DNA from: a virus
DNA: 64,000 nucleotides
Strand: one strand, 5' to 3'
IMG/VR virus record: IMGVR_UViG_3300034374_008984
Location: 1 to 64,000 of that record
Made by a program: the position numbers and the translations under genes. Under the pieces are notes generated by a model. The model saw nothing but the letters and a program-made list of their open reading frames with translations. It searched no databases and was not told the origin of the DNA. The first letter of the stretch is position 1. Each line of letters starts with the position of its first letter. Of the stretch, positions 9,075 to 64,000 are shown in pieces.

Positions 9075-9734
9075 ATGAAAACAGAAGTAATAACCCGCGA
9101 AATCTTCACCTTCGAGGAGCTTTCTGAAGATGCCAAGCAAAGGGCCATTGACAACCTGAGAGAGATAAATGTTAATTACGAATGGTGGGACATGACATAT
9201 GACAACCTTCGTGAGCTTGCTGAGATGTGCAATATAGCCGGGTTTGACATTGAAGGGTTCGACCTTGACAGAGCTCAGTCAATAGCACTAAGTGGAAGCG
9301 TTGACTACGCTGATCTTCAGTCCTTCGCAAGACAGCCCATAAAAGAGGATGGATATAAGCTACTTGATGAGCTGCACAAATTCGCGAAATCGGCACTGAT
9401 TAAAAATCTTTGTCCGGCCATGAGGACGGTAATAGCGACCACGTACGCCCATGGATACCGATTTGAAACAGGAGCAAGTTACGAGCGGACCCGATACGGG
9501 TGCACGGATGATACCCGCGTAGAAACAGAAGCCAACTATGAAGGAACGTCCGAATTAATGGTCGAACAAACGGAGGAGTGTGCAGAGGCCTGTTCTGAAT
9601 TTTTGGAGGAGTTCAAAAACCTTGCTTTCAAAATGCTTTCTGATGAATTCGATTACCTGTATTCAGATGAAGCAGTGAGAGAAGCCATCGAGGCCAACGA
9701 CTACGAATTTTTGGAAAACGGGGAGCTTGCATAA
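9075..9734 (+). CDS. Acidic early protein, candidate anti-defence factor
   Basis: FTFEELSEDAKQRA ... YLYSDEAVREAIEANDYEFLENG, a terminal pattern seen in mobile-element and phage proteins. Confidence 0.6.
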   Translation: MKTEVITREIFTFEELSEDAKQRAIDNLREINVNYEWWDMTYDNLRELAEMCNIAGFDIEGFDLDRAQSIALSGSVDYADLQSFARQPIKEDGYKLLDELHKFAKSALIKNLCPAMRTVIATTYAHGYRFETGASYERTRYGCTDDTRVETEANYEGTSELMVEQTEECAEACSEFLEEFKNLAFKMLSDEFDYLYSDEAVREAIEANDYEFLENGELA

Positions 9735-9823
9735 AAATACAGCCCGGCACCCGATAACGGACACCCGCGAAACGGTGCCGGGCCAATACCACTACCAACA
9801 AAGAACCAACAAACAGCCACACC

Positions 9824-10689
9824 ATGAATGTCAATTCAATCAAAATAGGGGACACTCTTAAACACCCATACTTCAGCTTAAGCGGGATAGTCACCGAAAT
9901 CGGGGAACCTGAAAGCACAGGACAAGGAACAGACTTTAAACCCGTGAAACTGAAACCACTGAAAGGTTCAGGCCCGGACTATAATGAGTGCATCACCTCA
10001 TTTACCCTTACGTTTCACGAAGACGAAAACGGGGATTATACACATCAAGGACTCTTGAAAGTCAACTGATAACCACCAACAACGCTACACCATGAAAGCA
10101 ACAGTCAAGACCATTAAAGGAACACCGGGAACGGCAGTCTTCAATGCCAACCTGAGAAGCTACGCAGCCGACAACCTGAAGGGATACAGGCAGCTCAAAT
10201 TCAACGAGACACTGAAGGGCAAACAGGCCGCACACGTTGTCCATATCAAAGGACGATACTTCAGGGGCGAATGGTCGGGATACGTTTCACAGGTCGTGAC
10301 CACCTTTTACAAGTAAACAACAACCGGGCAGCCGCCCATAAAAACCACAACCAACAATGAAAAAAGTAAGAGCAATTTTCGACAACGGAGGACAAACATT
10401 CGACCGCTACACCGTCATCTTTTCGGATGGGGAAATGATAGGGGCAAGTGAACATCCGTTCAGCCCGGCCGGGTTCGGTCAACATACGGGCAACCTGATC
10501 GACAACTACCAACGGAATGCATGGGGAGGACGGGGAACAGACCGACCGACCAACAAGCGAGAAATCAACCGATGGATAACGGTAGACATTCAGAACTTCA
10601 AAAAGAGCAGGAACATAGGCAAGCTCATAAAGTTCGAGCAATTACCGGAGGACGTGCAAAAATTCGTTCAACAGGAATTAACGGAGTGA
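9824..10689 (+). CDS. Three small early genes (9824-10069, 10092-10316, 10357-10689)
   Basis: Consecutive ORFs, each with a C/A-rich leader. Confidence 0.7.
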
Positions 10690-36047: not shown

Positions 36048-38261
36048 ATGGACAACTACAAGCTACTTGACACGGAAGGCCCATCGCATCAGATGGAGAC
36101 CCACCGCCCTAATGTCGTAGGCACGAAACGGGCCCTGAAAAAAGAACACAAGGGGATGCACGGCATGATTGCCAAGTACCTCCGCTTCATGGTCACGCAG
36201 TGGAACCTCGACTACAATACCCCTCTCTACTCCACGAGGAATCCCGGCCACATCCTTCACAGGTCTCCCGTAGAGGAGATGCTCCTCAATTACAAGTACT
36301 ATCAGTCCCAGCAGGATGTTAACAGCTATGCCTACCTGACAGAAACCGCAGAGGGGGAGGAGCGTCCAGCCAAATTTACCCATGGTTCAGAGATCTATCA
36401 GGTGGTGCAGCACATGGTAGGCCCCGTTGTGAAGCACTTCGCAGGGACAACCATCACAATCGAATCCCTTGATCCCTCCGTGCAGTCCAAGCGGCAGGCC
36501 AAGGTCGCAATGCTTCAAGCCAAGAAACTCCTGCCAGACATCTTCAAGAGGTTCTCCGAAATGGGCGCCACGTTCATGCCTGAAGGAGCAACCGAGGCAA
36601 AGGACATGGACGGGGCTATTCAGGAGGCGCTGAGAAAACCAGCCCACAAGGTCGAGCGGTACGGCATGGACATCCTTACTCATGTCAACAACACCAACAG
36701 CGTAAAGGACTACATGCCCAAGCGTTTCAAGGATGTCGTCATTGGAAGGCATTGCGCAACGCACAGAACAGTATCCAATGGAAGAATCGTCCTCGAAAAG
36801 ATTGACCCTTGGAACCTCATCTTCGACAGAGACAACTCAGATGACGACTACAACAGGTACGCCCTGTTCAAGGGATTCATCAGTTGGAAATCCCACGAGG
36901 AGATCATGCAGGCGTACACCCTCGGAAGCGATGCCGAGGAAGAACTCAAGAAGCTCTTCGACAGCAACAGGAGTGCAACACTGCCGGGACTCAACGGAGT
37001 GATGGGTAATGTCCCCCAATCTGGATTCTCTTGGCTGGAATCGGACGGACCCCGTAGAATAGCCTGTGTGACAGGATACTTCATCGCCACGATAAAGGAA
37101 GATGACGGGACATCCTATCAGACCATCTACGAGGGGACTTTGATAGGAAACACGGTGCTTGTCAACTTCGGGGAATCCAACAACATCAGCTACGACATAG
37201 CCCGACCTGAGTGGCCGGTCATGCCCATCCATATCTACAGCCCCGACACGATACTCGGAACGAACGTCTGTCCCGTGGACCGGTTCAGAGAAATGCAGGA
37301 GGACTTGGATGCGTTCAAGTACAAGATTCGGGAACACATCGACAGAGACCTCGGAAAGGGGTATGTGTTCTATGCGGATACAGCCGTTCCGAAAGACATC
37401 ATTGAAGACCTCAAGAACTTCGGTGTAACAGTCATCAACAGGGCCGACCCCGAGGAACCCATCATCAACAACAACAGGATGGTGGACACAGTGGACATGA
37501 CCCTTGACCCTAACGTGGCACAGTACATAGCCCTGCGAAAGGAGTTCAAAGCGGACATGGACAATGTGGTATCCCAATCGAACATCACGAGAGGGATGCA
37601 GCAGACGTACATCGGTGGAGGTACACAGCAGGCCACCGTTGCACAGGCCAGCAACGGCACCGTTTCTCTCATGTCGGGATTCTTCCAACACTTTGCCTTC
37701 ATAGAGCAGGACATATTAAATACCGCCAAGACAATGCTCTTGGAGCCCAAGAACAGGGAAGAGGCGGAACTCATTCTCTCTGACGCAAGCGCAGATTTCT
37801 GGGAGGCCATGCAAGACCTCAATGTCATCGACATGCAGGTGCGTATCGAGATGGAGGACTTCATTGACGAGGAGCGCAGGGCAAGGTATCAGCAATATGC
37901 CCTCGCAATGGCACAGAACGCGAGAGAGACAGGGTTCACAATGCTCGATGCCATCAACATCGAGAACGCCCGCACAAGTCAGGAGTTGATGACCAAACTG
38001 AAAGAGTCCCTCGAACTGAAAGAACTGAAAGCCGAGCGCATGAGACAAGAAGACATGGCTATGCAGCAGCAGATGCAACAGATGCAGATGCAGCAGCAAG
38101 GTCAGATGTTCCAACTCGAAGAACAGAACAAGGCTCTTCGAGACCAGATCCGCAACGCGCCCAAGCACGAGGCCAATCAGATCAAACGCGAGGAGATGAA
38201 CATGTCAAGGGACATGGTATTCGCCTCCGAAGCAGGAATGCCAGGAACAGAAGTGGAATAA
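36048..38261 (+). CDS. Portal protein (crAss-like)
   Basis: 737 aa between TerL and scaffold/capsid; helical; Q/M-rich coiled C-terminus; DMTLD..V.QYI motif. Confidence 0.8.
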   Translation: MDNYKLLDTEGPSHQMETHRPNVVGTKRALKKEHKGMHGMIAKYLRFMVTQWNLDYNTPLYSTRNPGHILHRSPVEEMLLNYKYYQSQQDVNSYAYLTETAEGEERPAKFTHGSEIYQVVQHMVGPVVKHFAGTTITIESLDPSVQSKRQAKVAMLQAKKLLPDIFKRFSEMGATFMPEGATEAKDMDGAIQEALRKPAHKVERYGMDILTHVNNTNSVKDYMPKRFKDVVIGRHCATHRTVSNGRIVLEKIDPWNLIFDRDNSDDDYNRYALFKGFISWKSHEEIMQAYTLGSDAEEELKKLFDSNRSATLPGLNGVMGNVPQSGFSWLESDGPRRIACVTGYFIATIKEDDGTSYQTIYEGTLIGNTVLVNFGESNNISYDIARPEWPVMPIHIYSPDTILGTNVCPVDRFREMQEDLDAFKYKIREHIDRDLGKGYVFYADTAVPKDIIEDLKNFGVTVINRADPEEPIINNNRMVDTVDMTLDPNVAQYIALRKEFKADMDNVVSQSNITRGMQQTYIGGGTQQATVAQASNGTVSLMSGFFQHFAFIEQDILNTAKTMLLEPKNREEAELILSDASADFWEAMQDLNVIDMQVRIEMEDFIDEERRARYQQYALAMAQNARETGFTMLDAINIENARTSQELMTKLKESLELKELKAERMRQEDMAMQQQMQQMQMQQQGQMFQLEEQNKALRDQIRNAPKHEANQIKREEMNMSRDMVFASEAGMPGTEVE

Positions 38262-49817: not shown

Positions 49818-50476
49818 AACTCAAAGAGTGTATAGAGATACTTCAGGCGTCCCTCAGTGGAGGCGTGTTCACGGCAGAGGGCCTTACCGATGTCAAGTTC
49901 ATGGAGTCCGTCCTCGCAACGGCCCGGGCAGTGTGCATCAAAGAGATGTACCTCACGCAGAACAACATCCACGAGATCTACTACCAGCACGTCTATCTGG
50001 ACTACGAGGAGGACATCCAGGAGGACGACTGCTACACCGTGTTCAGGTACCCCACGATACTCAACATCAACACACAGGTTGACGGGCATTCCTACATAGG
50101 GCAGAGCAAAGGGGATGCGAGTTGGAAGCGCATCAAGAGTCACGCGCAGTGGGCCAACTTTCAGAAGGCCCGGCCAAGACGCATAAAGGACGAGAGCATC
50201 TACTACCTGTTGGAGCCTCAGTACGGGCTTGTCAAGGTGTTCAAGGAAAAAGGCACCGTCAAGAGAGCTGTCGGGTATTCAATCTTCGCAGACCCCCTCG
50301 ATAGTCTGATACCCTTCAACAGGCAGCTTGACGAGTACCCTATCACGCCCGAGTGCATGGCCCTTGTCGAGCAGTACCTGAGACAGGGCAAGTTCGAGAA
50401 GTACTTGCAGAGGCCGTCTAACATGATCGCAAACGGGGCGGATGATGCACAGTTGATGATGACAGGTCAGCAATGA
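49814..50476 (+). CDS. Putative tail ring protein
   Basis: IFADP...DEYPI motif; synteny with crAss-like tail genes. Confidence 0.55.
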   Translation: MKLKECIEILQASLSGGVFTAEGLTDVKFMESVLATARAVCIKEMYLTQNNIHEIYYQHVYLDYEEDIQEDDCYTVFRYPTILNINTQVDGHSYIGQSKGDASWKRIKSHAQWANFQKARPRRIKDESIYYLLEPQYGLVKVFKEKGTVKRAVGYSIFADPLDSLIPFNRQLDEYPITPECMALVEQYLRQGKFEKYLQRPSNMIANGADDAQLMMTGQQ

Positions 50477-50805
50477 CACCGCTATACAGGGACATCGAAC
50501 TGGAAAAGGAGTTCAAGAGGTTCCGCAGAAGCCCCGAGGGAAGGCGTCCATACTTCGATGCGCTATGGACAACATGGGAAATTATGAGGGCAAGCGACCT
50601 GAAAAGACTGCCGAACAACACCTTTGCCCTTGTCCGCGCAAACTTGTACCTTGCAGGGCTGCACTTCAACATTCTGCCTGAGCAGAAGAAGTTCTACGAC
50701 TACACGGTATGGTTCATGGAGAACAGACTGAAAAATACAGGGGCAAAAGGTTATTGTAGATGCGAAATGTCCGAACTTTACAGCCCTGCAAAGGATAAGA
50801 GATGA
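50473..50805 (+). CDS. Hypothetical protein
   Basis: 110 aa, ATGA-coupled. Confidence 0.6.
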   Translation: MTPLYRDIELEKEFKRFRRSPEGRRPYFDALWTTWEIMRASDLKRLPNNTFALVRANLYLAGLHFNILPEQKKFYDYTVWFMENRLKNTGAKGYCRCEMSELYSPAKDKR

Positions 50806-51515
50806 GATTCAGTGAGACAACATACGACCAGATAATCGCTATGGCGAAGTTCGGCCTGAACCTCGAGAACACCACCGACCACGACCCTTGGTTCATGCTC
50901 CTCCTCGATGAGTGCATGAGAGGAGTGAAGGACAGAAGCATAGAGGAACTCAGGACAGAGATCATCCCCCTCGATGAAGGCACCGCCCCACTCCCTTGCG
51001 GGTTTCTCCGCGCTATGGCTGTATGGTTCCAAAGCAGTACAGGCCCATGCACCCTTGCCCCGTATGTGGACAGGAACATAGTCAACTACTGCGACTGCGG
51101 GGTGGACAACGTGAACCTGACCGCCCTCGGGACATCCTATCAGGTTAACGGCAATCACATCGTGTTTCACAACCCTATGGCGATCTCCGCAGAGGAGGTC
51201 TCCCTCGCGTACCTCGGACTGAGGCTCAACGAGAACAATCAGCCGGTCGTCCTCGAGAGTCATTCCCGCCTCGGTGCCGCCTTCATCACATGGAAGTTCA
51301 AGACGAAAATGGCCTCCGCAGAGAGGAACGCAGGGATGAGAAACCTTATGCGGAACGAGACAATGGACGCCAAGAGGGAGTACATGGCGCAGAAACGATA
51401 CGTGGAAGGCGAGAGCAACAAGCGGCAGTGGGATGAGGACAAGAAATCAATCGGGAGAACCTTCAACGCTTGGATAACAAGGCACAACAAGAGGGGTCTT
51501 TACAGTATGCCGTAA
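50802..51515 (+). CDS. Putative tail tubular/ring protein
   Basis: A.LPCGF; Y..NG..I.F; V.LAY.G...E.N.P motifs; directly upstream of the stabilisation protein. Confidence 0.55.
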   Translation: MRFSETTYDQIIAMAKFGLNLENTTDHDPWFMLLLDECMRGVKDRSIEELRTEIIPLDEGTAPLPCGFLRAMAVWFQSSTGPCTLAPYVDRNIVNYCDCGVDNVNLTALGTSYQVNGNHIVFHNPMAISAEEVSLAYLGLRLNENNQPVVLESHSRLGAAFITWKFKTKMASAERNAGMRNLMRNETMDAKREYMAQKRYVEGESNKRQWDEDKKSIGRTFNAWITRHNKRGLYSMP

Positions 51516-51529
51516 GAACGCACTGAGAC

Positions 51530-54500
51530 ATGGCAGACAAGATCACGCGCATAACCCCTGCGGGGAACATGGACAAGGATTCCGACCCAAGGTATGTCGG
51601 AAAGGGAGAACGCGCAGGAGATTACCTCGATGCAAGGAACATTCAAGCAGTATCCGAGGACGGCAACCTGCAAGGCTCCGCTATACCTACAAAGGGATGC
51701 GTATTAGGCTTTGACCTCGGCAGCGTCACTCAGCAGAACAAGCGGTACAGGATATTCCTTGACGGGGATGCCACGAAGCAGCACGCGGTAAGGTTCCTCT
51801 CTACGCAGCGGGACGCGAACATACTTATCGGCACGGGGCCGTTACCTGGTCAGGCGGTTGAGTTCAACGGAACGGTCGCAAGTTGCGTGGCAGCATTGCA
51901 AGCAGCGGGTAACGCTGGGGTGATGACCTTCTCAGCGACAGCCACAACGGTTGACGTTACGATGACCGCTTATCCGATGTACCAATGGTACGCGGAGAGC
52001 GTTGGTCAGGACGTTGTTCAGGTGACATGCGTGGCGGAGGCCATACCTGTTGACCTCGCGGGGCCGCTAAAGGACATCGGCAGCTACGACTTACTTGGAG
52101 ACCTGTTCATATTCAGTACGACTCAGGACAACGAGCCGACAGAGATAGCTCCCGACATAATCCTTGTAGGCCCGACATCGGGAGGAACATACATAGGCCC
52201 GCTCACGAGTTTGCTCTTCAACGGCAACCATGGACTTGTTCAAGGACAGTGGATACGCATCACGGGCTCGAACGAGTCGTTCCTGAACGGCCTGTTCGTG
52301 GTGAACTCAGTAGTGGATGCCACTCAGATAGAAATCGTGACGGTCACCGCGTGGGGAGTCAGTCCTCCCGTGACCACCCTCGGAACCCCGCAGGTGTTCA
52401 TCCACCCGACAGGCATCGGAGAGATAGGTGTCGCTCAGAAGGACGACAACACTGATTCGTGGACTTACACGAGATTGCTCCGGAGCGTGGAGTTGAATTT
52501 TGTGAGTCGTTGGCAGGTGGATTCCGATGGGGAAAAGGAGGTTAATGAGGTGTCCATCTACTTTGATGACGATTACAATAATTACAGGAGAATATATTAC
52601 AAAGGCGATTACGTCACCGATGGGCTTCTCGGCTTTATTGGGGCAGGGAATGATTATTCATACGGGAATATCAATTCTCAGATATACGGATTCAGTCCTA
52701 AGCCTTATGTGATAATTGATTATGACGGCCAATCGAACCCGGGTGGAAGTCTGGTGTCCGGAAATTACAGGTACTTTTTTGTCTTCAAGGATTTTTCTGG
52801 CAATGAATCCAATCCATCAGACCTGTCAGGTGTTGTCGTGGTCTATTCTGATGAGGAAAATTCCCTTGCCATAGGTGACGATGCGGGAGTGACAACCAAC
52901 AAGTTGACAAGGTTGACTGTCAGTGGGATTGATACATCGGTATTCTCTCAGGTCGCGCTCGGATACGTGAACAACACGCTTGGGGTTCTTTCCGCTAACA
53001 TAGGCCCTTTTCGAGAGGTGTCGGGGGTTGAAATGAGTTTTGTCCATACTGGGTTCGAGGAGTTCATTCCTTACGATGTGGCCGTATTTGCGTCTCAATG
53101 GAACTCTTTGAACTATGACTTTGCAAAGAACATCCGAATAATAGACCAACGGATTGTGAGGTCGAATCTTAGGAAGCCAAGATATGCTGACCTTGAGGAT
53201 TTTTTCGCTTCATTCAAGCACTCTGTATGCGTTGAAAGGATAGATGGCACACAGGCCCCGTCCGCATCAAACCCTGCTGGGGAGTTCAAGGACACTTCAA
53301 ACGTGTTCTACAAAAAGGGGTATATGTTCAATGAGACCTATCGGTTCTCGGGTAGGGTCGTTTTTAACAACGGTTCAATATCGGACTGGTTTTGGATTGA
53401 TGACATCAGAATCGACCCACTCACATCAAACGCGGCAAATCCCAATGATGACAGGAGAGACCAATCCTCCCCCAACATCGCCACGTCATACGACCTTACA
53501 GAGAACATACCCGGGATAGCTATATCCCAAACAGGCAGAAAGACCCCGGACGGCAGCGTTTTCGATTCCAATGGCAACCTTGTCAGCAACCCGCAGAATG
53601 GTGTCGGGGATTATTTCTCCGATTCAAGGTATTTTCACAAGACCGTGCTCGTTCCCTATGTGGAGTTTTTTGGAGCAAACATAAATGCACCGATAAACGG
53701 CACTCCCTTATCCTCATTGATTTCACATATAGAAATTGGCAGGTGCGAGGTCGTCAAAGAGGTGATTGCAACAGGTATGGCAGTGTCCTCTGTTCGGATA
53801 ACAACATCAGATGACCTCAACGTGCCCGGGGAGGATTTTCAATCTGTTCAAGGCATTTTGAGAGGGCCTTCACTTGTGGGGACATTTTCTATAATAAACC
53901 AAGGCTCTAATCGTCTCCCGGACACAAGGCTTGGTCTTGGAGTGAGGACCGGTGACAGGGATGGGGTTTTTGAGACTTTTCACGAGTATCCATACGTGTA
54001 CTCTTCATTTCCTATGACAAGGATGGTAACAGGCTCAACCCCTGCTTCGTCTGCGCTGCCATTCATAACGACTCACCTTTTGGAACACTTCGTTGTGACC
54101 TTTCAGCCTGAGGGTTCGTGGGTGAACACGTTCCAAGGCTTCAATGACGGGTCAACCCCACCGGGTGTTTCTGTTTACTACCCATCCGCAAACGGTGTTG
54201 ACTTCTGCATGAACGACATACCGACCACTGAGGAGGATTCCATTGGCACATCAACGACTCTGAACAACTTCGGAAACAGGTTAAAGTCTGAGAGGAGATA
54301 CCACACCATATATTCCCCTGATCTGATATTCGGGCAACAACAGGAATTTGAGCCATCAACAATATCTTCTGTAATAGATTTCGGGGAGGCTTTTCTTGAC
54401 ATGACTCAGTTTTCAAATACATTTTACTGGAAAGCTGTTTCAACAGGGAGTGAGGATGTTCAGATTCCATCATGTGTCAGTAGATACATCCCTGAGAACA

Positions 54501-56569
54501 TGGGTACATCATTCAACGAGTACACCATAGACAGAATCTCAATAATCGGGGCGGGGGAGAGGGTTAATATGGACGGCTTCAATGGATTCAGGAAGGCACA
54601 TGACGCCTTTTCATTCTTTGCCGGGCAGTTTATCGGTGGGCCACCCCCAACCACCCGAAAGATTGGTTATGAAGGGTTATGGAAGATGATTGAAAGCCCG
54701 GTTGTTTTCACTGAGAATAATGGCCTCGGCATAGTTTCTCAGGGTAAAAATCCCGACCACGGCATCAGGTACATTCAACTGTTCACGAAAAAGGATGACA
54801 AGTACGGGGATAAATCCGAATCCACATACCTCACTACAAACACTGTTCTCGACATCAGGGAAAGAGAACCTTTCGGAGATATACAGCCGGGAGAGATAAA
54901 AGTTTTCGGAGGAGACACTTACACACAGCAATCCTATCTCAAGACCAAATTTTCAGATGTCTCCGTGAGTCCGGGTGCAAATGATGGAGAATGGAGCACT
55001 GACGACACCCTGATGTCCGCAACCAAGGGACCTGGGTTCGGGGGAGGTCTTTTCGTCTATACCCAAAACAGGGTCAACTCGCAACTCAGATTCGACACGG
55101 AAGATCAGTTCATTCCATTGAAGGATACCAATACGCTCGGTGAGTGGGCATGGGATTTCCGATTACTTGATAGGCACACGTATTCAGGAATATATGACGG
55201 TGACGTGTCGGATGGCCTTACTCAGGCATCAGGAAACGAGGGTCTTGACCCAACGAGATTTGATTTCCCTTCAAGGATCGTATGGTCTCAGAAGAAAATC
55301 TACGGGGAACTTTCCGACTCGTACGCGATGTTCCTTCCTTTTGACCTGAAAGACCTTGATCTCAGGTTCGGGGAAATAATGCACCACGAGAATGTGAACG
55401 GTGAACTATTCACTCTTCAGTTGCGGAAGTGGATGGCGCAGCTCTTCAACACCCGTGGAGAACTCCAAGTGTCGGGCAATGCGATAGGCGCAGTCATCGG
55501 TGATGGCTCGGTACTTTCCCGTGACGGGCAGACCCTTTCCCGCTACGGCACGGAGAACAAGTGGTCATGCGTCCTTGGAACGAGCCAAGGCGGCAAGGAT
55601 GTCCTCTATTGGTTCAATGCCGAGAACGGCCTCTTTCTAAGATTCGGTGCAGACGGCACGGTAATAATCTCCGACACAAGGCGTTTCAGGTCGTTCTCCA
55701 ACAAGGCCGCCAAGTGGGTTCGCGGGAAGGATGCCCCCGCATTCGAGCAAGGCATCAGGGCCGTGTGGGACGACCGCAGCAAGGAGGCCATCTGGACATT
55801 CACCGGCTGGAGAGATGTTGCGGAGTGGGCCCGTCCTGGCGTCATCATCCCGTCCACAACAGAAGGCACCGTTGTCAGCAACCCCAACGCACCATCCCTC
55901 ACCTACGAAAACCTCCCAAGGTTCTTCAAGGCAAAGAGCACCCACGCTAACCTCCTTTCGAGAGAGCCGGGGGTCGGGGCTGATTGGCAGGAGTTCTTCG
56001 AGGAGATACCCGTGACGGACACCGACTACTACTCCGTGTTCACGGTGGCCCACAACGAGATGACCAACGGCTTCAAAACGTTCTACGGGCACATCCCGAA
56101 GACCTACTTGAAGTGGCGGGACACATTCCTTTCAAGCCACCCCATATTCAGGAACCTCATCTTTGAGCACAGGAAAGGGGATTACTGCACATGGTACGGT
56201 AATGAGGCAAAAGGAATAGCCCCAAAGATCGAGGACGCCCATGTGGAGATGGTCGTCAACGAACTCCCCGAGCAAAGCATGAGAGGGGTCGCTGTCAGCT
56301 TCCTTTCGGACAACGCCCCCGACAGAGTTGATTTTAGCACCCCGAGACAGAGAACATTCTCAGAGTCTCAGGACTTTGTCCGCAGGGATGATCAGTACTT
56401 CGCGCCTATAAGAGGAGATGTGTCTCAGGGCCTTGCACCGAACCAAAGCAGAGTTGCATTGTCGGGTGATTACTTGCGTGTCAAGTTCACTATCTTTGGC
56501 GGGACTTACAACCTACTTCACAGCATCATTGTCAAGATAAGGGACAGGATGCGAAGGATAAATAACTGA
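51530..56569 (+). CDS. Tail stabilisation / muzzle protein (P22 gp10-like, crAss-like)
   Basis: 1679 aa; MDKDSDP..Y.DARNI start, FGGDTY, FPSRIVWS, GDYLRV end. Confidence 0.7.
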   Translation: MADKITRITPAGNMDKDSDPRYVGKGERAGDYLDARNIQAVSEDGNLQGSAIPTKGCVLGFDLGSVTQQNKRYRIFLDGDATKQHAVRFLSTQRDANILIGTGPLPGQAVEFNGTVASCVAALQAAGNAGVMTFSATATTVDVTMTAYPMYQWYAESVGQDVVQVTCVAEAIPVDLAGPLKDIGSYDLLGDLFIFSTTQDNEPTEIAPDIILVGPTSGGTYIGPLTSLLFNGNHGLVQGQWIRITGSNESFLNGLFVVNSVVDATQIEIVTVTAWGVSPPVTTLGTPQVFIHPTGIGEIGVAQKDDNTDSWTYTRLLRSVELNFVSRWQVDSDGEKEVNEVSIYFDDDYNNYRRIYYKGDYVTDGLLGFIGAGNDYSYGNINSQIYGFSPKPYVIIDYDGQSNPGGSLVSGNYRYFFVFKDFSGNESNPSDLSGVVVVYSDEENSLAIGDDAGVTTNKLTRLTVSGIDTSVFSQVALGYVNNTLGVLSANIGPFREVSGVEMSFVHTGFEEFIPYDVAVFASQWNSLNYDFAKNIRIIDQRIVRSNLRKPRYADLEDFFASFKHSVCVERIDGTQAPSASNPAGEFKDTSNVFYKKGYMFNETYRFSGRVVFNNGSISDWFWIDDIRIDPLTSNAANPNDDRRDQSSPNIATSYDLTENIPGIAISQTGRKTPDGSVFDSNGNLVSNPQNGVGDYFSDSRYFHKTVLVPYVEFFGANINAPINGTPLSSLISHIEIGRCEVVKEVIATGMAVSSVRITTSDDLNVPGEDFQSVQGILRGPSLVGTFSIINQGSNRLPDTRLGLGVRTGDRDGVFETFHEYPYVYSSFPMTRMVTGSTPASSALPFITTHLLEHFVVTFQPEGSWVNTFQGFNDGSTPPGVSVYYPSANGVDFCMNDIPTTEEDSIGTSTTLNNFGNRLKSERRYHTIYSPDLIFGQQQEFEPSTISSVIDFGEAFLDMTQFSNTFYWKAVSTGSEDVQIPSCVSRYIPENMGTSFNEYTIDRISIIGAGERVNMDGFNGFRKAHDAFSFFAGQFIGGPPPTTRKIGYEGLWKMIESPVVFTENNGLGIVSQGKNPDHGIRYIQLFTKKDDKYGDKSESTYLTTNTVLDIREREPFGDIQPGEIKVFGGDTYTQQSYLKTKFSDVSVSPGANDGEWSTDDTLMSATKGPGFGGGLFVYTQNRVNSQLRFDTEDQFIPLKDTNTLGEWAWDFRLLDRHTYSGIYDGDVSDGLTQASGNEGLDPTRFDFPSRIVWSQKKIYGELSDSYAMFLPFDLKDLDLRFGEIMHHENVNGELFTLQLRKWMAQLFNTRGELQVSGNAIGAVIGDGSVLSRDGQTLSRYGTENKWSCVLGTSQGGKDVLYWFNAENGLFLRFGADGTVIISDTRRFRSFSNKAAKWVRGKDAPAFEQGIRAVWDDRSKEAIWTFTGWRDVAEWARPGVIIPSTTEGTVVSNPNAPSLTYENLPRFFKAKSTHANLLSREPGVGADWQEFFEEIPVTDTDYYSVFTVAHNEMTNGFKTFYGHIPKTYLKWRDTFLSSHPIFRNLIFEHRKGDYCTWYGNEAKGIAPKIEDAHVEMVVNELPEQSMRGVAVSFLSDNAPDRVDFSTPRQRTFSESQDFVRRDDQYFAPIRGDVSQGLAPNQSRVALSGDYLRVKFTIFGGTYNLLHSIIVKIRDRMRRINN

Positions 56570-56575
56570 GAACGC

Positions 56576-57358
56576 ATGGCAGTTCCTGTAATGGCAATAG
56601 CAGGGTTGGCGATGGGTGGCATTCAAGCGGCCATATCCGCATCGAAGGCCAGCAAGCTACCTGAGAACAGACCTTATACCGTGTCCCCTGAACTCAAGGC
56701 CGCCTACACAATGGCCCGAAGAAGGGCTGATGAGGGCTATACCCCAGAGGAGCGGGCCAATTTCGAGCAGATGTTGGCAAGGCAGGGGACAGCGGCCAAG
56801 CAGATGTTCCGCAATATGGGACTTGCGGGAGCAGGTTCCGCAGCGGCAAATATCATGGGCATTGATGCCCTGAATCAGTTTGCGGCAACAGGCGCGGGTA
56901 TTCGGAGGCAGAATGCAGGAGATTTCTACGGACTTGCGGGACAGATGCAGAACGTGCAAGACCAAGAGACCAACAGGTTTAATCAGCAGGTCAACATGGA
57001 AGCGCAGGCTCTCGGTCAGGCCATCCAAGAAGGAGGAATCAAAAACATTATGGGCGCGGTCGGGAATTTCCAACAGTTTCAAGGCCAGCAACAAGCCATC
57101 GACATGTACAAGAACATGGGTGTTGGAGGCAATTCAGGAGCGGGGCTTTTATCAGGGCTTTCAGGGATACTCGGTCAAATGAACCAAGCTGGAGGAAATT
57201 CATCTCTTGCAGCTGCGCCTCAGACACAAGCAACGGCACAGGCACCTGCATGGAATTTCGGGCAAGGCTTGATGAATCAGCCTCCGCAGCAGGACATGTA
57301 CGGATTCAATCCCGGCTTCGCCCCAAGCACTTTTTCAAACCTGTTCGGAACTCTGTAA
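56576..57358 (+). CDS. Putative ejection (internal virion) protein
   Basis: Hydrophobic Gly/Ala N-terminus, Q/A/G-rich; follows the tail protein. Confidence 0.6.
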   Translation: MAVPVMAIAGLAMGGIQAAISASKASKLPENRPYTVSPELKAAYTMARRRADEGYTPEERANFEQMLARQGTAAKQMFRNMGLAGAGSAAANIMGIDALNQFAATGAGIRRQNAGDFYGLAGQMQNVQDQETNRFNQQVNMEAQALGQAIQEGGIKNIMGAVGNFQQFQGQQQAIDMYKNMGVGGNSGAGLLSGLSGILGQMNQAGGNSSLAAAPQTQATAQAPAWNFGQGLMNQPPQQDMYGFNPGFAPSTFSNLFGTL

Positions 57359-57361
57359 GCA

Positions 57362-58963
57362 ATGGCAAACAACCTCAGCACAGGTATCGGGCTGTCAGGA
57401 CAGTTCGACTATTCCCAAACAGGGCTTGAACCCGTATTACAGGCGGAGCGGGACCTTGCGGGGAGACGTGCGCAGGAGCAGCAGCAGAAGAACAAGGAGA
57501 GGAAGGCTTTGCTGGACGAGATCAAGAAGGTGACCCTTATGGATCACGGCTTGAAAATCCCCCTGTATCAGCGTCAATGGGAGTCCACGATGGCAGATGC
57601 CATGACAGAGATTGTTGACAAGGCCGCAAAAGGAGAGGATGACGCTTACGCGGCAGCGTGGAACCTTCAAAGGAGAATGAAGAACTACACGCAGGACCTC
57701 AAAGCGGCTGACGAGGAGCTGTACAATGTCTATGAGGCTGTGAGGAAAAACCCTGAGAAGTATGCGTGGAACGACCCGCAGGAAATCATGGAGAAGACCT
57801 ACAACAACTTCTTTGAAGTACTGAAAGACCCGTTGATGGCAGATGTCAACAACATGAGGGAGGCCATGAAGTACTACGGAGGCACGGAGTATCTTCTTCA
57901 AGAGAACGACCCCGAGTCTATTTCGAGAGGAGCTCCCCCATTCACCGTTCACTACAATCCTCAAGAGATGGTGAACCCACTTGACTACGCCATGGAATTG
58001 GCAAAGGAGAAAGCTCAATACGACCAACTTGAAATGGGTAAGCCGTTCATGGTCGGAGGCAAGATGAGAGCAGAGGAGGTTTACAGGATGAGTCCTGAGA
58101 CAATCGGACTGCTCACTGATGAGGCGTTTCAGAACATGGGCGTTCTCAGAAATTACGAGGAACGTCTGTTCAAGAACCGTCCCGACAAGAGCATGACAAG
58201 AGCGGAGTTCCAAAAAACTGATTGGATTGAGGATGCAAGATTGCTTCACGAGCAAAAAATCAAGCCTCAGTTGCAGAGAATGGCTACAGGGCAAGGCACG
58301 ATTGACGTACCCCTACCAACCCCCAAAGAGGCCAAGCCGTCAGCCTTTGAAAGGTCATGGAGTGTTTCAGCACCAGCGCAATCTGAGTACGGCATCGCTG
58401 AAGGAGCGAGAATGGATGTAAACGAAGTGAACTTCTATCCAACGGCAGGTAGATCAAGGCAGCCCGTTAACATGCAATTCCCTGAAGGAACTCTTCAGCT
58501 TAACCAAGAAGGAGAACTCAAAAAAGTGGAGTTGTCTTCAAGCGAAGTTGTTCCCGCTGGAGTGACCTATGTAAGGAAACACACTCAGTTGTCACTCCCC
58601 GAGGGCAGGAAGCTAAAGACATTCTTCAAGTACAACGGTGACGGGATGACCTATTTCGTTCCGTTGCGACAAGGGTCTTTTGAAGAATTTGTCGGCAGGA
58701 CGGAAGCGAAACCAGATGAGGTTTACAACAAAATCAAAACACTGCACGGGGGAGACAAACAAGTTATCGAACAGTTCGATGAGTTTTTTAAGGGGCTTGG
58801 GATGACGCAGCAGGGAGGAAATCAGAAGCCATCCAGCAACACGGCAACTTCAACCTCTTACACGAACAGGCAGAAGGTTAGAGACGCCAATGGCAACTTG
58901 TTTGAAATTGGAGTAAAGAATGGAAAGTGGTATAACATAGCCACAGGAAAAGAAGTCAACTGA
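57362..58963 (+). CDS. Putative ejection (internal virion) protein
   Basis: 533 aa, helical, lacks Cys. Confidence 0.55.
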   Translation: MANNLSTGIGLSGQFDYSQTGLEPVLQAERDLAGRRAQEQQQKNKERKALLDEIKKVTLMDHGLKIPLYQRQWESTMADAMTEIVDKAAKGEDDAYAAAWNLQRRMKNYTQDLKAADEELYNVYEAVRKNPEKYAWNDPQEIMEKTYNNFFEVLKDPLMADVNNMREAMKYYGGTEYLLQENDPESISRGAPPFTVHYNPQEMVNPLDYAMELAKEKAQYDQLEMGKPFMVGGKMRAEEVYRMSPETIGLLTDEAFQNMGVLRNYEERLFKNRPDKSMTRAEFQKTDWIEDARLLHEQKIKPQLQRMATGQGTIDVPLPTPKEAKPSAFERSWSVSAPAQSEYGIAEGARMDVNEVNFYPTAGRSRQPVNMQFPEGTLQLNQEGELKKVELSSSEVVPAGVTYVRKHTQLSLPEGRKLKTFFKYNGDGMTYFVPLRQGSFEEFVGRTEAKPDEVYNKIKTLHGGDKQVIEQFDEFFKGLGMTQQGGNQKPSSNTATSTSYTNRQKVRDANGNLFEIGVKNGKWYNIATGKEVN

Positions 58964-61900
58964 TGCGGAACCAAGACCCAACCCTACCCCCACTTCCCAA
59001 AGGATTCACCGTAGTAGAATCGTCTGACGCGCCTCCATTGCCGTCAGGATTTACTCCCGTAGAAGAACCCATTGTCCCTGAAAAAAAAAGCCCTATCGGG
59101 TCATCTTCCCAAGATGGTTCGCAAGGCTTACAGGGTGCTCCATCGTCACCTTCGAGAGGTATTCAGCTTCCTGACCAGCCCTTCTCGGGATTGGGCGGGG
59201 TAATCGAACAGGACGACCCGATACTCCCAAAGGTATCCCTTGAGAGGCCACCAGTCAATCCCCTTGCGGAATACGAGCGGATAGCGTCCAAGAGACACGA
59301 ACTCCAAGCGAGTAAGGTATCCGCATTCGAGGGGCCGTTCATGGCTCTTGGAGTTGGATTGGCAGGAGGCCCCGCTGCGGACAAGTACAGGAGGGAGAAG
59401 ATTGAAGAGGGAAAGAAGGCTGTTGCGGGGACTGACAGGGACTTCAATGCGGCAAGGTCATCCGCTATGTCCGCCATAGAGAATATCGTACAGGACAGGA
59501 TAAGGGACAACGTAAAGGAGTTCACCACATCAGACCTGACAGGGGTCTCCGTGCCCGACCCCCGAAAAGTGAAGGAGTGGGCGCAGGCGGTCGCAAGAGA
59601 GAACGGACTGCCCGAGGACGGCTGGGCGTGGAAGGCACTCAATGACAAGGCCACAGACCATATCGCCTTCAAGATAGTCCAGCCGAGGGTTGATAAGGCT
59701 TTTGAGAGGATGTGGAAGGAAGAGAAGGGGAAGGAAGTGCCGAAGGACGTGCGCGAATACCTCGGAGTGAATCAGAAGGAAACCGAAATCGAGCGCGAAC
59801 TCATATCGGGCCTTTCGCAGGAGAAGGCACAGGTGGAGGCACAGGTGGAGGAGCAGTTCGCTAAGGTCACAGGCGGAATGCCCGTGCAGGAGTACGTACA
59901 GATGAGGGACGCGGCCCATGAACAGAGAATCAGAGAACTTCAATCACGGTACGCTCAGTTCATCACCCCGCAAGGAGAGTTCGCGGGAAGCCCCGAACAG
60001 TATGCTCAGTACCAATCCGAGTTCGAGACAACTCAGAAGCAGTACGAATCAGAGGTTTCAAGGACGGTGGGCGAACTTACCCAGATACAGGCCAACGCCA
60101 ACAGGAGATTCAATCGCGTCCGCATCGAACGTATCGAACAGGCCGAGCGGACCATGCAGGAGTTCATGTCCGAGAAAGAGAGGCTCGTTCCTGGGCTTCA
60201 AAAGGAAATCGAGGACACCTATCGGAAGGCATACGGAAAAGTACTCGGAGAGAACGACTCTTGGAGGGAAATCCTTTACAGGGACAACAAGGTGATGGCC
60301 CTCGGGACATCGTGGGCATCCGCAGTAGGCGGTTCTGTAAGCCGCATGGGAAGCCTGTTCGCATCCCCCGAGATGCAGTCCACGGGGAAGGCCATGGAGA
60401 ACTTCTTCTATACGGGAAACCCGAACATGGAGAAGCTGAGTGACTGGCTCGACCTTTTCAAATCGGCCCGGTCCACAGGCAACCTCATGGGCAGTATGAC
60501 CACATCGATGGTACCCGCTGTCGCAGCAGGTGTCGCAACGGGGGGTCTGGGGGGCGTGGCCCTCGGAACGATGATGTCGTGGGCAGGAGAATCAGCGGAT
60601 ATAGCGGGGGGCATCGCAGAGCGGATATACAATGAGACGGGGGATCCCGCGAAGGTTCAGCAAGGGGTGTCACAGGCATTCTCTGCGCAAGGGCTGTTGC
60701 TCCCGACCTACTTCCTTGAGATGTCCAACATCTTCGGGAAGATATTCACTGGCGGGGGGCTTGGAAGAAGGATTGCTCTCGGGGCGGGTACGGAATACGT
60801 TATAGAGACGTTATTTCAGGAATTTCCACAACAACTCTTCGAGGAATCCATTGTCGCGGGAAAAGGACTTGAAGGCGTTCTTGACAACTTCACACCAAGC
60901 AATTTTGAAAAGACAGCAGGGAAACTCAAGGATGTGGCATTGAACACTCCTTCCGTCATGCTCATGGGCGGTCTCGGTCAGGCAAGGGCGTATGTGGACG
61001 AGAAAGGATCACAGGAAAAGAGGGAGGAGCAGATAGCAAATAGGCTAAGTTCCATCAACTCAAGAATGCGGGCGGGGGACTTCACTGGCACGGACTTCCA
61101 ACAGTCGGCACTCAAACTTGCCGTTGACTTCGGTGTGTACGAGGCTTCAAAGGTGGCCGTAGCCACGTACTTCAATGGGGGCATCACATACGAGACCTTC
61201 ACAAGGATACAGCAGTCGTTGAATGACGCGAAGGAGATCACTGAAAAGGTGAATGCCATGGAAGGCATCACCGATGAGAACCGTCTGTTGTTCTCTATGA
61301 TAAACATGGAGCACCGTGCCCTTGAAAGGAAGGCCGAAAACGAGAAAGACCCCATCTTCAAGGCAAGAGCACAGAAGGAGGCCAATGAGAGGAAGGCCAT
61401 GCTCGATGAGATATTCGAGGGAGGGACACCCAACTATGCCACAGCGGAGTTCGAGGACGGCAACTTCACCGTTATGACCCCCACGGGAATCAAGAAGGCG
61501 ATGTCCAATCCAGCGTTCATGCAGGAGGTCGTTGACGGGAAGATCAAGTTCAACGCCTTTGGGAAAGATTCTCAGCAGGTCGTTGAGGAGTTCGCCAAAA
61601 CAATCAATGATTTCAAGCAGAACCAGCGGGGGAAAGTTGATGCGGACATAGCGAACAGGAAAAAGGAACAAGCACAACAAGAAGGGTACGAAGCGGAAAG
61701 GGAGGGGTACTTGATTAAGAGAGAAGAGGAGCTGGGCATCATCCCCGACATAATGGAGCCTGCACCGAAGTTTGTGACTGCTGCAATTACGCGAGTAGAA
61801 GACGACAAGCCAACAAGCCTTAGTCAAATTGAAGCGGCATCTGATTGGCTGTATTCGGAATACAAGAGAATATCCTCATTAAGAGATAATCCGAAAGAGA

Positions 61901-64000
61901 ACCCTCTGAGCCAAAAAAGAACGAACGAACTCCTCGATGCCATAGGAATGGACATCGAAATGCTTGAGTCTGCCAAAGGTAAAATGGAAGCAGAGGACAT
62001 CGCAGCATCTGATGCGCCAATCAATCAAGAACCGAAAACCGAAGAATCAATACAAGCCCAAGCAAGCAAGCCTTCCCCCGCACCGACCGTCAACACGACC
62101 CCGACAGAGGCCAGATACGCATCCGTCGATAGGAATGACGGCAAAGACCCCGTTGACCTGACCAAAGAGGAATACCTCGCAGAGATGGAGCGGAGAGGCA
62201 CGCCTGTTGAGGAGACCGCTACGGAGGCGCCTCAAGCGGAGAAGAAAACCGAATCGCTTCAACAGGAAAAAACCTCCATCGAACAGAAGATGGAGGATGA
62301 GATTGCGAAAGCAAGGGATCCATTTTATTACGCCCCTCTACCGTTCCCCGATGGATTGGCTCGGACGCCCAACAATGAAAAGCGTTGGAGGGAAGAGCAA
62401 GAGGCTCGCATAAAAGAGCAGATGAACGAGGCGGAAGCCGCTATCAGAGAGAATTACGCCACACAGCTTCAGGGTATAGACGAGAAGATTTCCCAAGCAA
62501 ATAAGCCAACCCCCACAGAGCCCACAACACAGCCCGTAGAAGCACCTGTTTCCGAATCTGAGTCAAATAAGGAGGGTGTGTTCAGTGAAGGACTGACATA
62601 CACTCCAAAGAGCAACGTAACAATAGATGCGTTTTCTGAATTTGACGATGAGGGAGTCCCGCAAGTCAGGATTGACAACATGGAAGTCCCTAAGAGGGAC
62701 AGAATGAAAGGAAAGGGCAGGGCCGAGTTCTCTGAAGTGGAGGCGTGGGCACGGGAAATCGGTGCGGAGCGGATTATCATAGAGTCAGAGAGAGACGCAA
62801 TTCCTTTTTGGAAGGCCATCGGATTCGACATTGACAACCAAGGCGGAGAAGTCTCCACAGGAATTTACGAAATACAACCAAACCCAACCCAAGATGCCCT
62901 TCAAGAGCCAAGCGCAGAGACGCGCCCTGTACGCCAAGAACCCGAAACTCGCCAAAGAGTTCGAGAAGAAGACACCCAAGAACAAGAAGCTGCCAGAGAA
63001 GGTAAAGCCCAAGAAGAAGTAGGCGCGCCCGACATAGCGTCCATGTCGAGAGAATCCCTCCTTGACTACCTGTTCAGCCTGCGTGAGGATTACTCCCTTG
63101 TGGACGTAGAGAACGAGGCCGAGGTCAGTCGCATAGAGACCGAGATGGATGCTGTTGAGGCCGCGATAGAAAAACTTCCGGAGCCTACTGAACCAAAGCC
63201 CGTAGAAGAAACAGAACAAGAGTTTACCGAAGAAGAGATGGAAGCCGCATACGCGGAACGGGAGAAAGAATTGGAGGAGTTCAAAGAAACTACCTTTTTT
63301 CAAGACATACAGGAAACCTTCCAGCCTATATCCATCGAGGAGTACGAGCGATACATGGGTAAGAAGACCTACAGGGACAACAGAAGATACCTCAAAGGGC
63401 TTGTCACAGAGCAAGGCGGAACCCAGCCGATAGATACCCGCTCAAAGCCTAATGCAGCAGAAGACGTAGAGTTCTTTGATCCTGAAGACATCATCGACTT
63501 CATAAATACCATTGCCGCTGAGAGGAACATCACAGGAGAGTCAAGATACAAGATTCCACCACAGAGAAACCGAAAGGAACGAATCGGTAAACCTTCTCCA
63601 AAGAAGAAGGTCAAGACGGGGGACTTCCTTCGGAACCTTGCAAAAGAGGTTGCCAAGGGCAAAATTGATAATCGCGGGATAGCTATGTCAGGAATCCCCG
63701 GATTTGTTCAGGCGTGGAACGCTGCAATAACCGCAGCAGAGAAGACTCTTGAGGCCACGGCCTACATGTCAGATATTGTGGATTTCCTTGTAGAGCACAT
63801 AAGGAACAGTCCTCAGTTCATGAGAATGAGGCCAGCGCAGAGAAAGGCTTACGACCTGAGAGGAACTGTCCTACGAGAAATGGGGATTACTGAGCAGCAG
63901 TACAATGATTCCCGAGTAGAGGCTGAAAAGGCAAAGGGAAAGGAGTCTGTAAAAAAAGCCCGTGCGGAGGAGAGGAAGAAAGCATCTGAGAAGATGAAAG
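58963..64000 (+). CDS. Giant internal virion / polyvalent-type protein, 5' part (>1679 aa; not in ORF track)
   Basis: ATG overlaps the previous TGA; no stop seen to the window end; hydrophobic Gly/Ala stretch at ~60480-60620; GNAT-like segment at ~62600-62870. Confidence 0.8.
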   Translation, partial: MRNQDPTLPPLPKGFTVVESSDAPPLPSGFTPVEEPIVPEKKSPIGSSSQDGSQGLQGAPSSPSRGIQLPDQPFSGLGGVIEQDDPILPKVSLERPPVNPLAEYERIASKRHELQASKVSAFEGPFMALGVGLAGGPAADKYRREKIEEGKKAVAGTDRDFNAARSSAMSAIENIVQDRIRDNVKEFTTSDLTGVSVPDPRKVKEWAQAVARENGLPEDGWAWKALNDKATDHIAFKIVQPRVDKAFERMWKEEKGKEVPKDVREYLGVNQKETEIERELISGLSQEKAQVEAQVEEQFAKVTGGMPVQEYVQMRDAAHEQRIRELQSRYAQFITPQGEFAGSPEQYAQYQSEFETTQKQYESEVSRTVGELTQIQANANRRFNRVRIERIEQAERTMQEFMSEKERLVPGLQKEIEDTYRKAYGKVLGENDSWREILYRDNKVMALGTSWASAVGGSVSRMGSLFASPEMQSTGKAMENFFYTGNPNMEKLSDWLDLFKSARSTGNLMGSMTTSMVPAVAAGVATGGLGGVALGTMMSWAGESADIAGGIAERIYNETGDPAKVQQGVSQAFSAQGLLLPTYFLEMSNIFGKIFTGGGLGRRIALGAGTEYVIETLFQEFPQQLFEESIVAGKGLEGVLDNFTPSNFEKTAGKLKDVALNTPSVMLMGGLGQARAYVDEKGSQEKREEQIANRLSSINSRMRAGDFTGTDFQQSALKLAVDFGVYEASKVAVATYFNGGITYETFTRIQQSLNDAKEITEKVNAMEGITDENRLLFSMINMEHRALERKAENEKDPIFKARAQKEANERKAMLDEIFEGGTPNYATAEFEDGNFTVMTPTGIKKAMSNPAFMQEVVDGKIKFNAFGKDSQQVVEEFAKTINDFKQNQRGKVDADIANRKKEQAQQEGYEAEREGYLIKREEELGIIPDIMEPAPKFVTAAITRVEDDKPTSLSQIEAASDWLYSEYKRISSLRDNPKENPLSQKRTNELLDAIGMDIEMLESAKGKMEAEDIAASDAPINQEPKTEESIQAQASKPSPAPTVNTTPTEARYASVDRNDGKDPVDLTKEEYLAEMERRGTPVEETATEAPQAEKKTESLQQEKTSIEQKMEDEIAKARDPFYYAPLPFPDGLARTPNNEKRWREEQEARIKEQMNEAEAAIRENYATQLQGIDEKISQANKPTPTEPTTQPVEAPVSESESNKEGVFSEGLTYTPKSNVTIDAFSEFDDEGVPQVRIDNMEVPKRDRMKGKGRAEFSEVEAWAREIGAERIIIESERDAIPFWKAIGFDIDNQGGEVSTGIYEIQPNPTQDALQEPSAETRPVRQEPETRQRVREEDTQEQEAAREGKAQEEVGAPDIASMSRESLLDYLFSLREDYSLVDVENEAEVSRIETEMDAVEAAIEKLPEPTEPKPVEETEQEFTEEEMEAAYAEREKELEEFKETTFFQDIQETFQPISIEEYERYMGKKTYRDNRRYLKGLVTEQGGTQPIDTRSKPNAAEDVEFFDPEDIIDFINTIAAERNITGESRYKIPPQRNRKERIGKPSPKKKVKTGDFLRNLAKEVAKGKIDNRGIAMSGIPGFVQAWNAAITAAEKTLEATAYMSDIVDFLVEHIRNSPQFMRMRPAQRKAYDLRGTVLREMGITEQQYNDSRVEAEKAKGKESVKKARAEERKKASEKMK
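62894..63022 (+). CDS. Overprinted 42-aa basic protein in the +1 frame
   Basis: MPFKSQAQRRALYAKNPKLAKEFEKKTPKNKKLPEKVKPKKK with a C/A-rich leader. Confidence 0.6.
   Translation: MPFKSQAQRRALYAKNPKLAKEFEKKTPKNKKLPEKVKPKKK

Follow-up and report, generated by a model that had tools for sequence, protein, structure and literature searches.

Nucleotides 62894 to 63022 of the window considered here, the first 64,000 nucleotides of IMG/VR virus record IMGVR_UViG_3300034374_008984, very probably constitute a real, independently translated gene that lies embedded, on the same strand and in a different frame, within the gene for a giant protein. That degree of confidence does not extend to any guess at its function. 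The open reading frame (ORF), its membership in a protein family, the recurrence of the arrangement in a constant frame, the selection on both frames, and the start signals were all computed directly; translation of the nested gene is what I infer. The host is an ORF of 2955 amino acids that begins at 58963 on the plus strand, occupies the window to its end at 64000, and finishes at 67830 in the complete contig of 73,651 bp. Its product is presumed to be a virion protein, either cargo or ejected.

The small ORF runs on the plus strand from an ATG at 62894 to a TAG at 63020-63022, in the +1 frame relative to the giant ORF, and encodes 42 amino acids: MPFKSQAQRRALYAKNPKLAKEFEKKTPKNKKLPEKVKPKKK. 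Fourteen of these are lysine, two arginine, and three glutamate, for a net charge of +13 and an isoelectric point (pI) of 10.6. The host frame reads the same DNA (62893..63021) as DALQEPSAETRPVRQEP..., residues 1311-1353 of the giant protein, an acidic, low-complexity linker (net charge -6, pI 4.5) with a weak GNAT-like domain before it and a helical region after it. All this is much as the first-pass annotation of the window had it: a lysine-rich peptide of 42 residues in the +1 frame at 62894-63022, laid over a low-complexity linker of its host. The ATG, the TAG, and the leader it quoted are all in place.

By its sequence, the peptide belongs to a large, unnamed family of small basic phage proteins, MPFKSxAQ...KKLPE. 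Among 5.8e9 proteins searched, 145 small called ones match it at E<=10, 80 of them at E<1e-3, the best at E 3.4e-14 with 86% identity. In an alignment of 40 family members (A1), P2, S5, A7, Q8, T27, K32, L33, and P34 are invariant, and M1, F3, K4, R9, and R10 are at least 90% conserved. The peptide from the window carries the N-terminal M-P-F-K-S-x-A-Q-R motif at residue 1, with all the residues conserved in A1, and also the second conserved block of the family, T-P-K-x-K-K-L-P-E, followed by the basic tail. An exhaustive profile search of 1.84e9 representatives brought the family to 4345 at E<=1e-3, 865 of which reach E<=1e-10. Among the best 150, many of them 100-600 amino acids long, the match starts at residue 1 in 131. 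Run against the window's own genome, the profile of A1 finds the small ORF at E 8.5e-25; the next best match has an E of 0.88, with nothing below 0.8. Matches by tblastn to GenBank phages are weak and limited to the first 20 residues of the peptide, and they begin exactly at the starts of small, annotated, stand-alone genes. Annotated stand-alone members include a 39-amino-acid gene in MW574966 and gp48 of Streptomyces phage Vorvolakos, with six other Streptomyces phage records. The resemblance to stand-alone MPFKS..AQR phage proteins that the first-pass annotation proposed is thus real, as judged by tblastn, the protein search, A1, and the profile search. No Pfam or PHROG model covers the family: nothing in Pfam is significant for the peptide (the best, DUF7801 at E 0.018, is below the cut-off), nor is anything in PHROGs (the best is phrog_1375, E 0.5). 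No description of the family or of the nested arrangement was found in the Creative Commons-licensed literature of PubMed Central and bioRxiv.

The arrangement recurs, and it does so in one frame. When IMG/VR was scanned for the A1 pattern, 600 stretches matched, of which 402 were confirmed as relatives; in contigs from metagenome-assembled genomes (MAGs) the pattern matched 329 times, with 89 relatives confirmed. Each scan contributed its 80 best loci, and counts of nesting rest on these and not on all matches. In half of the viral loci (40/80) the small ORF lies wholly within a long ORF of 289-3601 codons. The host is giant in 28 of the 80 (1261-3601 codons, some cut by the ends of the locus) and mid-sized in 12 (289-437 codons, with an ATG of its own 23-66 codons before the small one); in the other 40 the small ORF stands alone, with no host ORF. 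In every one of the 40 nested viral loci the host codon begins one nucleotide before the small codon, the same as in the window, and in the viral set no host of more than 250 codons was found in the other relative frame. Nested or not, all 80 viral loci retain the ATG and begin with M-P-F-K-S. Among the MAG loci, 18 of 80 are nested in the same frame, ten of them in hosts of 1071-3388 codons. Two more, from soil MAGs of very high GC content, are nested in the other frame, possibly by chance; 59 stand alone, and one is a long in-frame fusion. The first-pass annotation had made its proposal depend on whether homologs keep the +1 frame open. Together with its ATG, that frame is open within long host ORFs in 40/80 viral and 18/80 MAG loci, an outcome in favor of the proposal.

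The arrangement is found in cultured phages as well. In 68 records of Flavobacterium phage vB_FspP_elemo the match falls under a single annotated "structural protein". In NC_062743.1 (Flavobacterium phage vB_FspP_elemoC_14-1A) this is gp20, of 3694 amino acids (49920-61004), which contains an unannotated 42-amino-acid member of the family in its +1 frame. Gene callers forbid nested genes on the same strand, and so the nested gene is missing from annotations, those of the 68 elemo records included. The copy within NC_062743.1 gp20 (L245:9001-9129, at about 53581-53709 of the record) is a 42-residue family member with two cysteines.

Selection appears to keep the host frame open. In the 40 nested viral loci, given the peptide and each host's own codon usage, an open host frame has a median probability of 0.001. 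Stand-alone copies (37 unique sequences) have a stop-free frame of the host type in 2 cases and a stop-free other frame in 10. Since it is the other frame that is more often free of stops, the constant nested frame is not a compositional default. For this genome by itself, the host frame stays open in 5.6% of synonymous resamplings of the small frame (P = 0.056), and the converse resampling, in which the host protein is fixed and the +1 frame scored, leaves that frame open in 50% of cases, an uninformative result. The mark of the host frame may also be seen in the third positions of the small frame. These are T in 2.7% of codons within giant hosts and 4.0% within mid-sized hosts, versus 22.4% in stand-alone copies, and they are G in 55% of codons when nested versus 34% when not. 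None of the 42 codons of the small gene in the window ends in T, versus about 5.0 expected from the codon usage of the genome.

Purifying selection seems detectable on both frames, with the small frame as the probable dominant constraint. Pairwise diversity over the first 26 codons at small-frame positions 1/2/3 is.306/.216/.614 in stand-alone copies and.27/.192/.365 in copies nested within giant hosts. The lower diversity at the third position (.365 vs.614) indicates that synonymous sites of the small frame are constrained in nested copies. The least variable position in nested copies is the second base of the small frame, which is the wobble base of the host frame. Amino-acid identity over 36 unique nested sequences is.64 in the small frame versus.46 in the host frame. 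No close relatives of the giant gene around the overlap were found in viral or metagenome contigs, so no synonymous-site test within the lineage is possible, and among GenBank phages blastn matched the giant gene to nothing.

The nested ATG appears, moreover, to have its own translation start signal, one appropriate to its lineage. A start-context matrix (position weight matrix) was made from the 30 nucleotides upstream of 71 presumed gene starts in this genome, whose leaders are A-rich, G-poor, and without a Shine-Dalgarno (SD) motif. By this matrix the ATG at 62894 scores 8.39, the highest of the 176 ATGs in the giant gene and higher than 93% of the 71 gene starts; just 0.16% of 1261 other ATGs score so high. 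The leader is thus of the same kind as those of genuine genes, as had been claimed. The putative initiation region (62864..62893, plus strand) is A/C-rich, G-poor, without an SD motif, and unstructured, with A at -2, -3, -7, -8, and -12 to -14. The minimum free energy of the RNA from -30 to +20 at the small ATG is -0.1 kcal/mol, so little structure that just 0.3% of the 2940 windows of the giant gene equal it; the medians are -3.9 kcal/mol for gene starts and -8.4 for gene bodies. The leader agrees with the report of Baez et al. 2019 (PMC6847099) on Flavobacterium johnsoniae, which does not use SD sequences and in which low structure and A at -3, -6, -12, and -13 favor initiation. Of those positions, the leader of the small gene has A at -3, -12, and -13, and also at -14, but not at -6.

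The signal changes with the host lineage. Where the host ORF of a relative has a GC content of at least 0.5, 8 of 10 leaders contain an SD-like tetramer at -17..-5, versus 1.1 expected; where GC is below 0.5, 2 of 45 do, versus 5.2 expected, and the leaders are A-rich. Many low-GC nested loci have a recurrent TAAAA or ATAAAA about 11-15 nucleotides upstream of the small ATG. It provides both an in-frame stop four codons before the ATG and a run of A at -12..-14 that favors initiation in Bacteroidetes. A second ORF in an alternative frame of the giant gene, at 59918-60295 of the window (125 amino acids, with an ATG start), has an ATG that is outside the five best start-context scores of the giant gene.

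I propose that a single late mRNA yields both products. Ribosomes engaged on the giant ORF would read the overlap as an acidic, disordered linker. Other ribosomes would initiate at the internal ATG, within its A/C-rich, G-poor, unstructured stretch, in the SD-independent style of the Bacteroidota, and would produce a protein of 42 amino acids and net charge +13, with two predicted helices and a lysine-rich tail.

Nested loci compared in pairs have an island of conserved DNA. Nucleotide identity, taken in windows of 30 nucleotides, rises abruptly at the ATG and falls off again as the end of the small ORF is approached. In several pairs (L031/L036, L025/L058, and L073/L080) it goes from 0.4-0.6 just upstream of the ATG to 0.97-1.0, and in L060/L064 similarity is lost right after the small ORF. 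The flanks of the nested sites fall into 13 blastp clusters, with the window a singleton. The pattern suggests a shuffling of modules among giant genes, in which the embedded gene may be the joint. Other contigs from the same freshwater runs match the window at 62890-62922 only (33 bases, with 1-2 differences), beyond which they diverge into a different version of the small gene. With just these 33 bases in common and a different version following them, several phages with the gene must coexist in the samples.

Other architectures exist beside the nested one. The giant protein of L045 (2642 amino acids, 2063-9988) is 38-42% identical over about 1400 amino acids to the nested hosts of L058, L068, and L076. 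It aligns with them through the nested site but without that segment, and its small gene (10001-10153) adjoins, 13 nucleotides after the stop codon of the giant. Unrelated phages have stand-alone copies in their virion modules: in the sheath-bearing phage L005 the small gene follows a tail-fibre gene, and in L013 it comes directly after the portal gene. A profile of the mid-sized hosts, of about 400 amino acids, matches no protein of this genome, and it matches giant hosts only over the overlap, so a flanking host module shared by the two classes is not demonstrated. An apparent conserved 'DG.Y.V.L' strand upstream of the small gene is an impression, on which no claim here depends.

A tree of the peptides (40 columns) has eight changes of nested state, of which well-supported branches force only one, and it is too poorly resolved to count origins. 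In it the peptide of the window groups with nine stand-alone peptides, with a value of 89 in the SH-like approximate likelihood ratio test (SH-aLRT). The first-pass annotation had called the gene overprinted. So far as this means one gene nested in another and read in two frames, the description holds; birth de novo inside the giant gene, which it might also be taken to mean, is not established, the nearest relatives being stand-alone. For a family of thousands, mostly non-overlapping, capture by a host frame or escape from one is as likely as birth de novo. A bolder view, which taken as a whole I consider rather unlikely, is that the MPFKS gene is a portable cassette with two roles, both a basic escort of giant or acidic packaged proteins, or of DNA, and a site of recombination. 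Its ultra-conserved 5' part, set in an acidic linker tolerant of frame, would be the joint at which modules of giant genes are swapped, and embedded, adjacent, and free-standing states would interconvert repeatedly.

The evidence might be read otherwise. Suppose that the giant is not one gene here, that the small ORF stands alone between two genes, and that the host frame is free of stops there by accident or because of an indel in the assembly. A 5.6% chance of openness is not negligible, the closest relatives of the peptide are stand-alone genes, and the host frame offers a next ATG at 63043 with which a second gene might begin. That ATG, however, has a poor context (-4.18, below 97% of gene starts) and lies in structured RNA (-9.0 kcal/mol), and since the host frame has no stop, ribosomes arriving from upstream must read through in any case. 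An assembly error is hard to reconcile with contigs from three other runs, which reproduce the overlap with 0 differences and 0 gaps: one from run X7 (62656-63600), two stretches from run X9 (62300-62960 and 62953-63562), and one from run X14 (62834-62984). These runs may share one sampling campaign. Then there is the domain downstream. The C-terminal part of the giant, about 950 amino acids, is homologous to the giant ORF of L026 (28% over 953 amino acids, E 2e-60). A pattern scan of viral contigs with this domain gave 201 relatives among 371 matched stretches, and in 79 of the 80 loci kept it ends an ORF of 1543-3901 codons (some cut by the locus); the other ORF has 572. With embedding recurring in 40/80 viral and 18/80 MAG loci besides, two separate genes are a very improbable account of the window. 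A +1 ribosomal frameshift, which would append the basic peptide to the N-terminal 1310 residues of the giant as a truncated fusion, I judge to be extremely improbable. Programmed frameshifts are well known in phage structural genes, and in the window the small frame is free of stops for 37 codons upstream of its ATG, back to a TAG at 62780-62782. In most nested relatives, however, the small frame is closed by a stop 0-10 codons before its ATG (directly adjacent to it in L069 and L075), which argues against a fusion. It is also not what would be expected of a fusion that the ATG and M-P-F-K-S start should be kept in 80/80 viral loci, that start signals should fit each lineage, and that stand-alone and downstream-adjacent versions should begin at the same methionine. 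No slippery site was seen by eye, no formal search having been made.

It may be, on the other hand, that what is conserved is the DNA or the RNA, as a recombination joint or something the host frame requires, and that the embedded ORF is a silent passenger in this phage. This would account for identities of 97-100%, synonymous sites included, between flanks of about 50%, for similarity that stops at the borders of the ORF, as in L060/L064, for flanks that split into 13 blastp clusters, and for phages of the same samples that have only 62890-62922 in common. It would not account for diversity that tracks the codon positions of the small frame, nor for a protein family that keeps its sequence over a range of GC contents while its codons change. 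Third positions of stand-alone copies are free to vary (.61), and so conservation of the family is at the level of protein. Furthermore, Rfam has no match in 62500-63400, and the region is unstructured. A silent ORF in this phage is improbable, and in any case a conserved nucleic acid and a nested gene are compatible, not exclusive.

Several observations tell against a nested, translated gene or reduce what can be made of it. The chance that the host frame is open is, in this window alone, not small (0.056). The 37 open codons upstream mean that stops do not exclude a frameshift fusion here. The high identity at synonymous sites in some pairs of loci could reflect recent recombination rather than selection. 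The nearest relatives of the peptide stand alone, so the nested arrangement in this phage may be young. In a locus from a Crocinitomicaceae MAG (L202:5808-5876) the small ORF is cut to 22 amino acids within a host frame of 400 codons that is still open; an embedded copy may have decayed there, or the sequence may be in error. Nor is the small gene necessary to the giant family: profile and motif searches alike found it in just one of the 80 loci chosen by the giant C-terminal domain (L085, on the same contig as L026); equally, the small gene does not require the giant. No RNA run is listed as containing the stretch, all the runs that contain it being freshwater metagenomes represented by DNA contigs. 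Finally, the guess at function given below draws on charge and gene neighborhood only.

If the nested gene is real, what might its product do? An AlphaFold2 model made with A1 has a pLDDT (predicted local distance difference test) of 88, with helices at residues 6-15 and 17-26 and an extended basic tail. Foldseek matched it within BFVD only to uncharacterised members of the family (best E 5.4e-4). No solved structure matches, the hits of a profile search of the PDB being at chance level. A prediction of a complex between the peptide and residues 1150-1549 of the giant (window 62410-63609) scored 0.00, which is not evidence either way. Within longer proteins the module is found in frame 32 times (76-543 amino acids), mostly at the N-terminus, the remainder of the protein being varied: HELGH-motif proteins, DnaJ, a ParB-like nuclease, a zinc ribbon. 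In-frame fusions at residue 1 include P0125, P0133, P0141, P0138, P0139, P0152, and P0155. Many larger phage proteins thus seem to use the same module as a tag at the N-terminus. When 54 longer members were compared with Pfam, five matched DUF5661 and six other families were matched by one member each, which provides no clear functional lead.

Because of its charge, its fixed N-terminal position, its varied partners, and its linkage to virion modules, the module might tentatively be taken to bind or target nucleic acid, the interior of the capsid, or acidic cargo. It is likewise possible, and no better than a tentative suggestion, that the small protein is a late product of the virion module, synthesized together with the giant packaged protein and binding to nucleic acid or to acidic cargo. 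A DNA-condensing core peptide, the guess of the first-pass annotation, would fit the charge and the linkage to virion modules. A feature search of the ESM Atlas gave as the nearest named cluster a viral one labeled "putative DUF3008" (score 0.84), a lead only. DUF3008 (PF11450) consists of small viral proteins, with no function assigned, that have similar N-terminal motifs. The identification failed when put to profile hidden Markov models: by hmmscan, PF11450 has no match to the peptide at E<=1 and matches 0/40 members of A1 at E<=0.01.

The giant gene itself would lie in a virion module, as judged by a gene two positions before it. This encodes a homolog of the crAss-virus muzzle protein (51530..56569, plus strand; 1679 amino acids), which matches PF25731 at E 1.8e-25 (89.8 bits versus a cut-off of 27) and phrog_28748. 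The phage thus appears to have a crAss-like tail module; the muzzle is the one marker for it, and no membership in the Crassvirales is claimed. Also recognized are the portal (36048..38261, plus strand; phrog_6547), the terminase (31419-33434; phrog_6681), a DnaB helicase (28172-29650), and one tRNA-Ala. The contig was recovered from freshwater metagenomes, and its leaders, lacking SD motifs, are the one indication that the host of the phage may belong to the Bacteroidota. Neither Pfam nor PHROGs has a family for the giant protein, for the hosts of about 400 amino acids, or for the giant of L026; the giant of L051 matches DUF6861 only (E 5.7e-8). Just upstream of the nested gene ends a weakly GNAT acetyltransferase-like segment of the giant (62653..62826, plus strand; PF00583 at E 0.0052, below the cut-off, and phrog_3810 at E 0.0061). 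It may be an enzymatic domain within a giant virion protein, a lead only. The mid-sized hosts have a neighborhood of their own: each is a very acidic protein of about 400 amino acids whose gene follows a terminase-portal pair, coming directly after the portal, and is followed by one for a virion structural protein. The terminase and portal of the pair belong to phrog_6681 and phrog_6547, the same PHROGs as those in the window.

There are precedents for genes of this sort. Phages of Gram-negative hosts have Rz/Rz1 spanin gene pairs; in phage lambda, Rz1 is embedded in the +1 frame of Rz, and in related phages Rz and Rz1 may be embedded, separated, or adjacent. The likeness is close: here too a small gene with its own start lies wholly within a larger phage gene, on the same strand and in the +1 frame, and here too both embedded (L058, L068, L076) and adjacent (L045) architectures are met. 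The gene is not Rz1. Outer-membrane spanins of the Rz1 type have a lipoprotein signal with a lipobox cysteine and a proline-rich mature part, and the 42-residue peptide has no cysteine and no hydrophobic or lipoprotein signal. The hosts, unlike Rz, are not lysis proteins but a giant virion protein or an acidic protein of about 400 amino acids encoded after the portal, and the small gene, unlike Rz1, also occurs in many phages without such a partner and as an N-terminal module. Small phages provide other precedents, E within D and B within A of phiX174 and L of MS2, genes restricted to their lineages and held to have been born de novo in very small genomes. Here as there, one stretch of DNA specifies two proteins in two frames, the nested product is short and of biased composition, and the host protein is disordered or tolerant where the two genes overlap. 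However, the phage considered here is a tailed double-stranded DNA phage of 73.6 kb under no obvious pressure of size, and its embedded gene comes from a family of thousands, mostly non-overlapping. Comparable too are the giant virion (cargo or ejected) proteins of crAss-like and Flavobacterium podophages, among them gp20 of elemoC_14-1A, the annotated structural protein, which is a giant host of the same type, downstream of a muzzle and virion module, with a 42-residue member of the family in its +1 frame. That likeness is one of gene type and position.

Nested +1 genes are, then, nothing new in phages. What is apparently unusual is the breadth of the phenomenon, the constant frame within dissimilar hosts, and the conserved island amid shuffled giant genes. 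The case draws attention to a large uncharacterised family (4345 representatives) whose module, placed at the extreme N-terminus, resembles the pattern of a targeting or packaging tag. The embedded, adjacent, and free forms of the gene can be compared directly, and the Flavobacterium elemo phages, grown on Flavobacterium sp. BAL314, provide cultured carriers. The start signals would be seen to switch between the SD type and the Bacteroidota type according to the lineage of the host. The nested gene is among the best-conserved sequences of giant virion-protein genes that otherwise diverge rapidly, and it visibly shapes the frame of its host, in wobble positions free of T and in an acidic linker. 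If the nested gene is translated as proposed, then large double-stranded DNA phages would offer, in this family, a natural and widely replicated example of dual coding.

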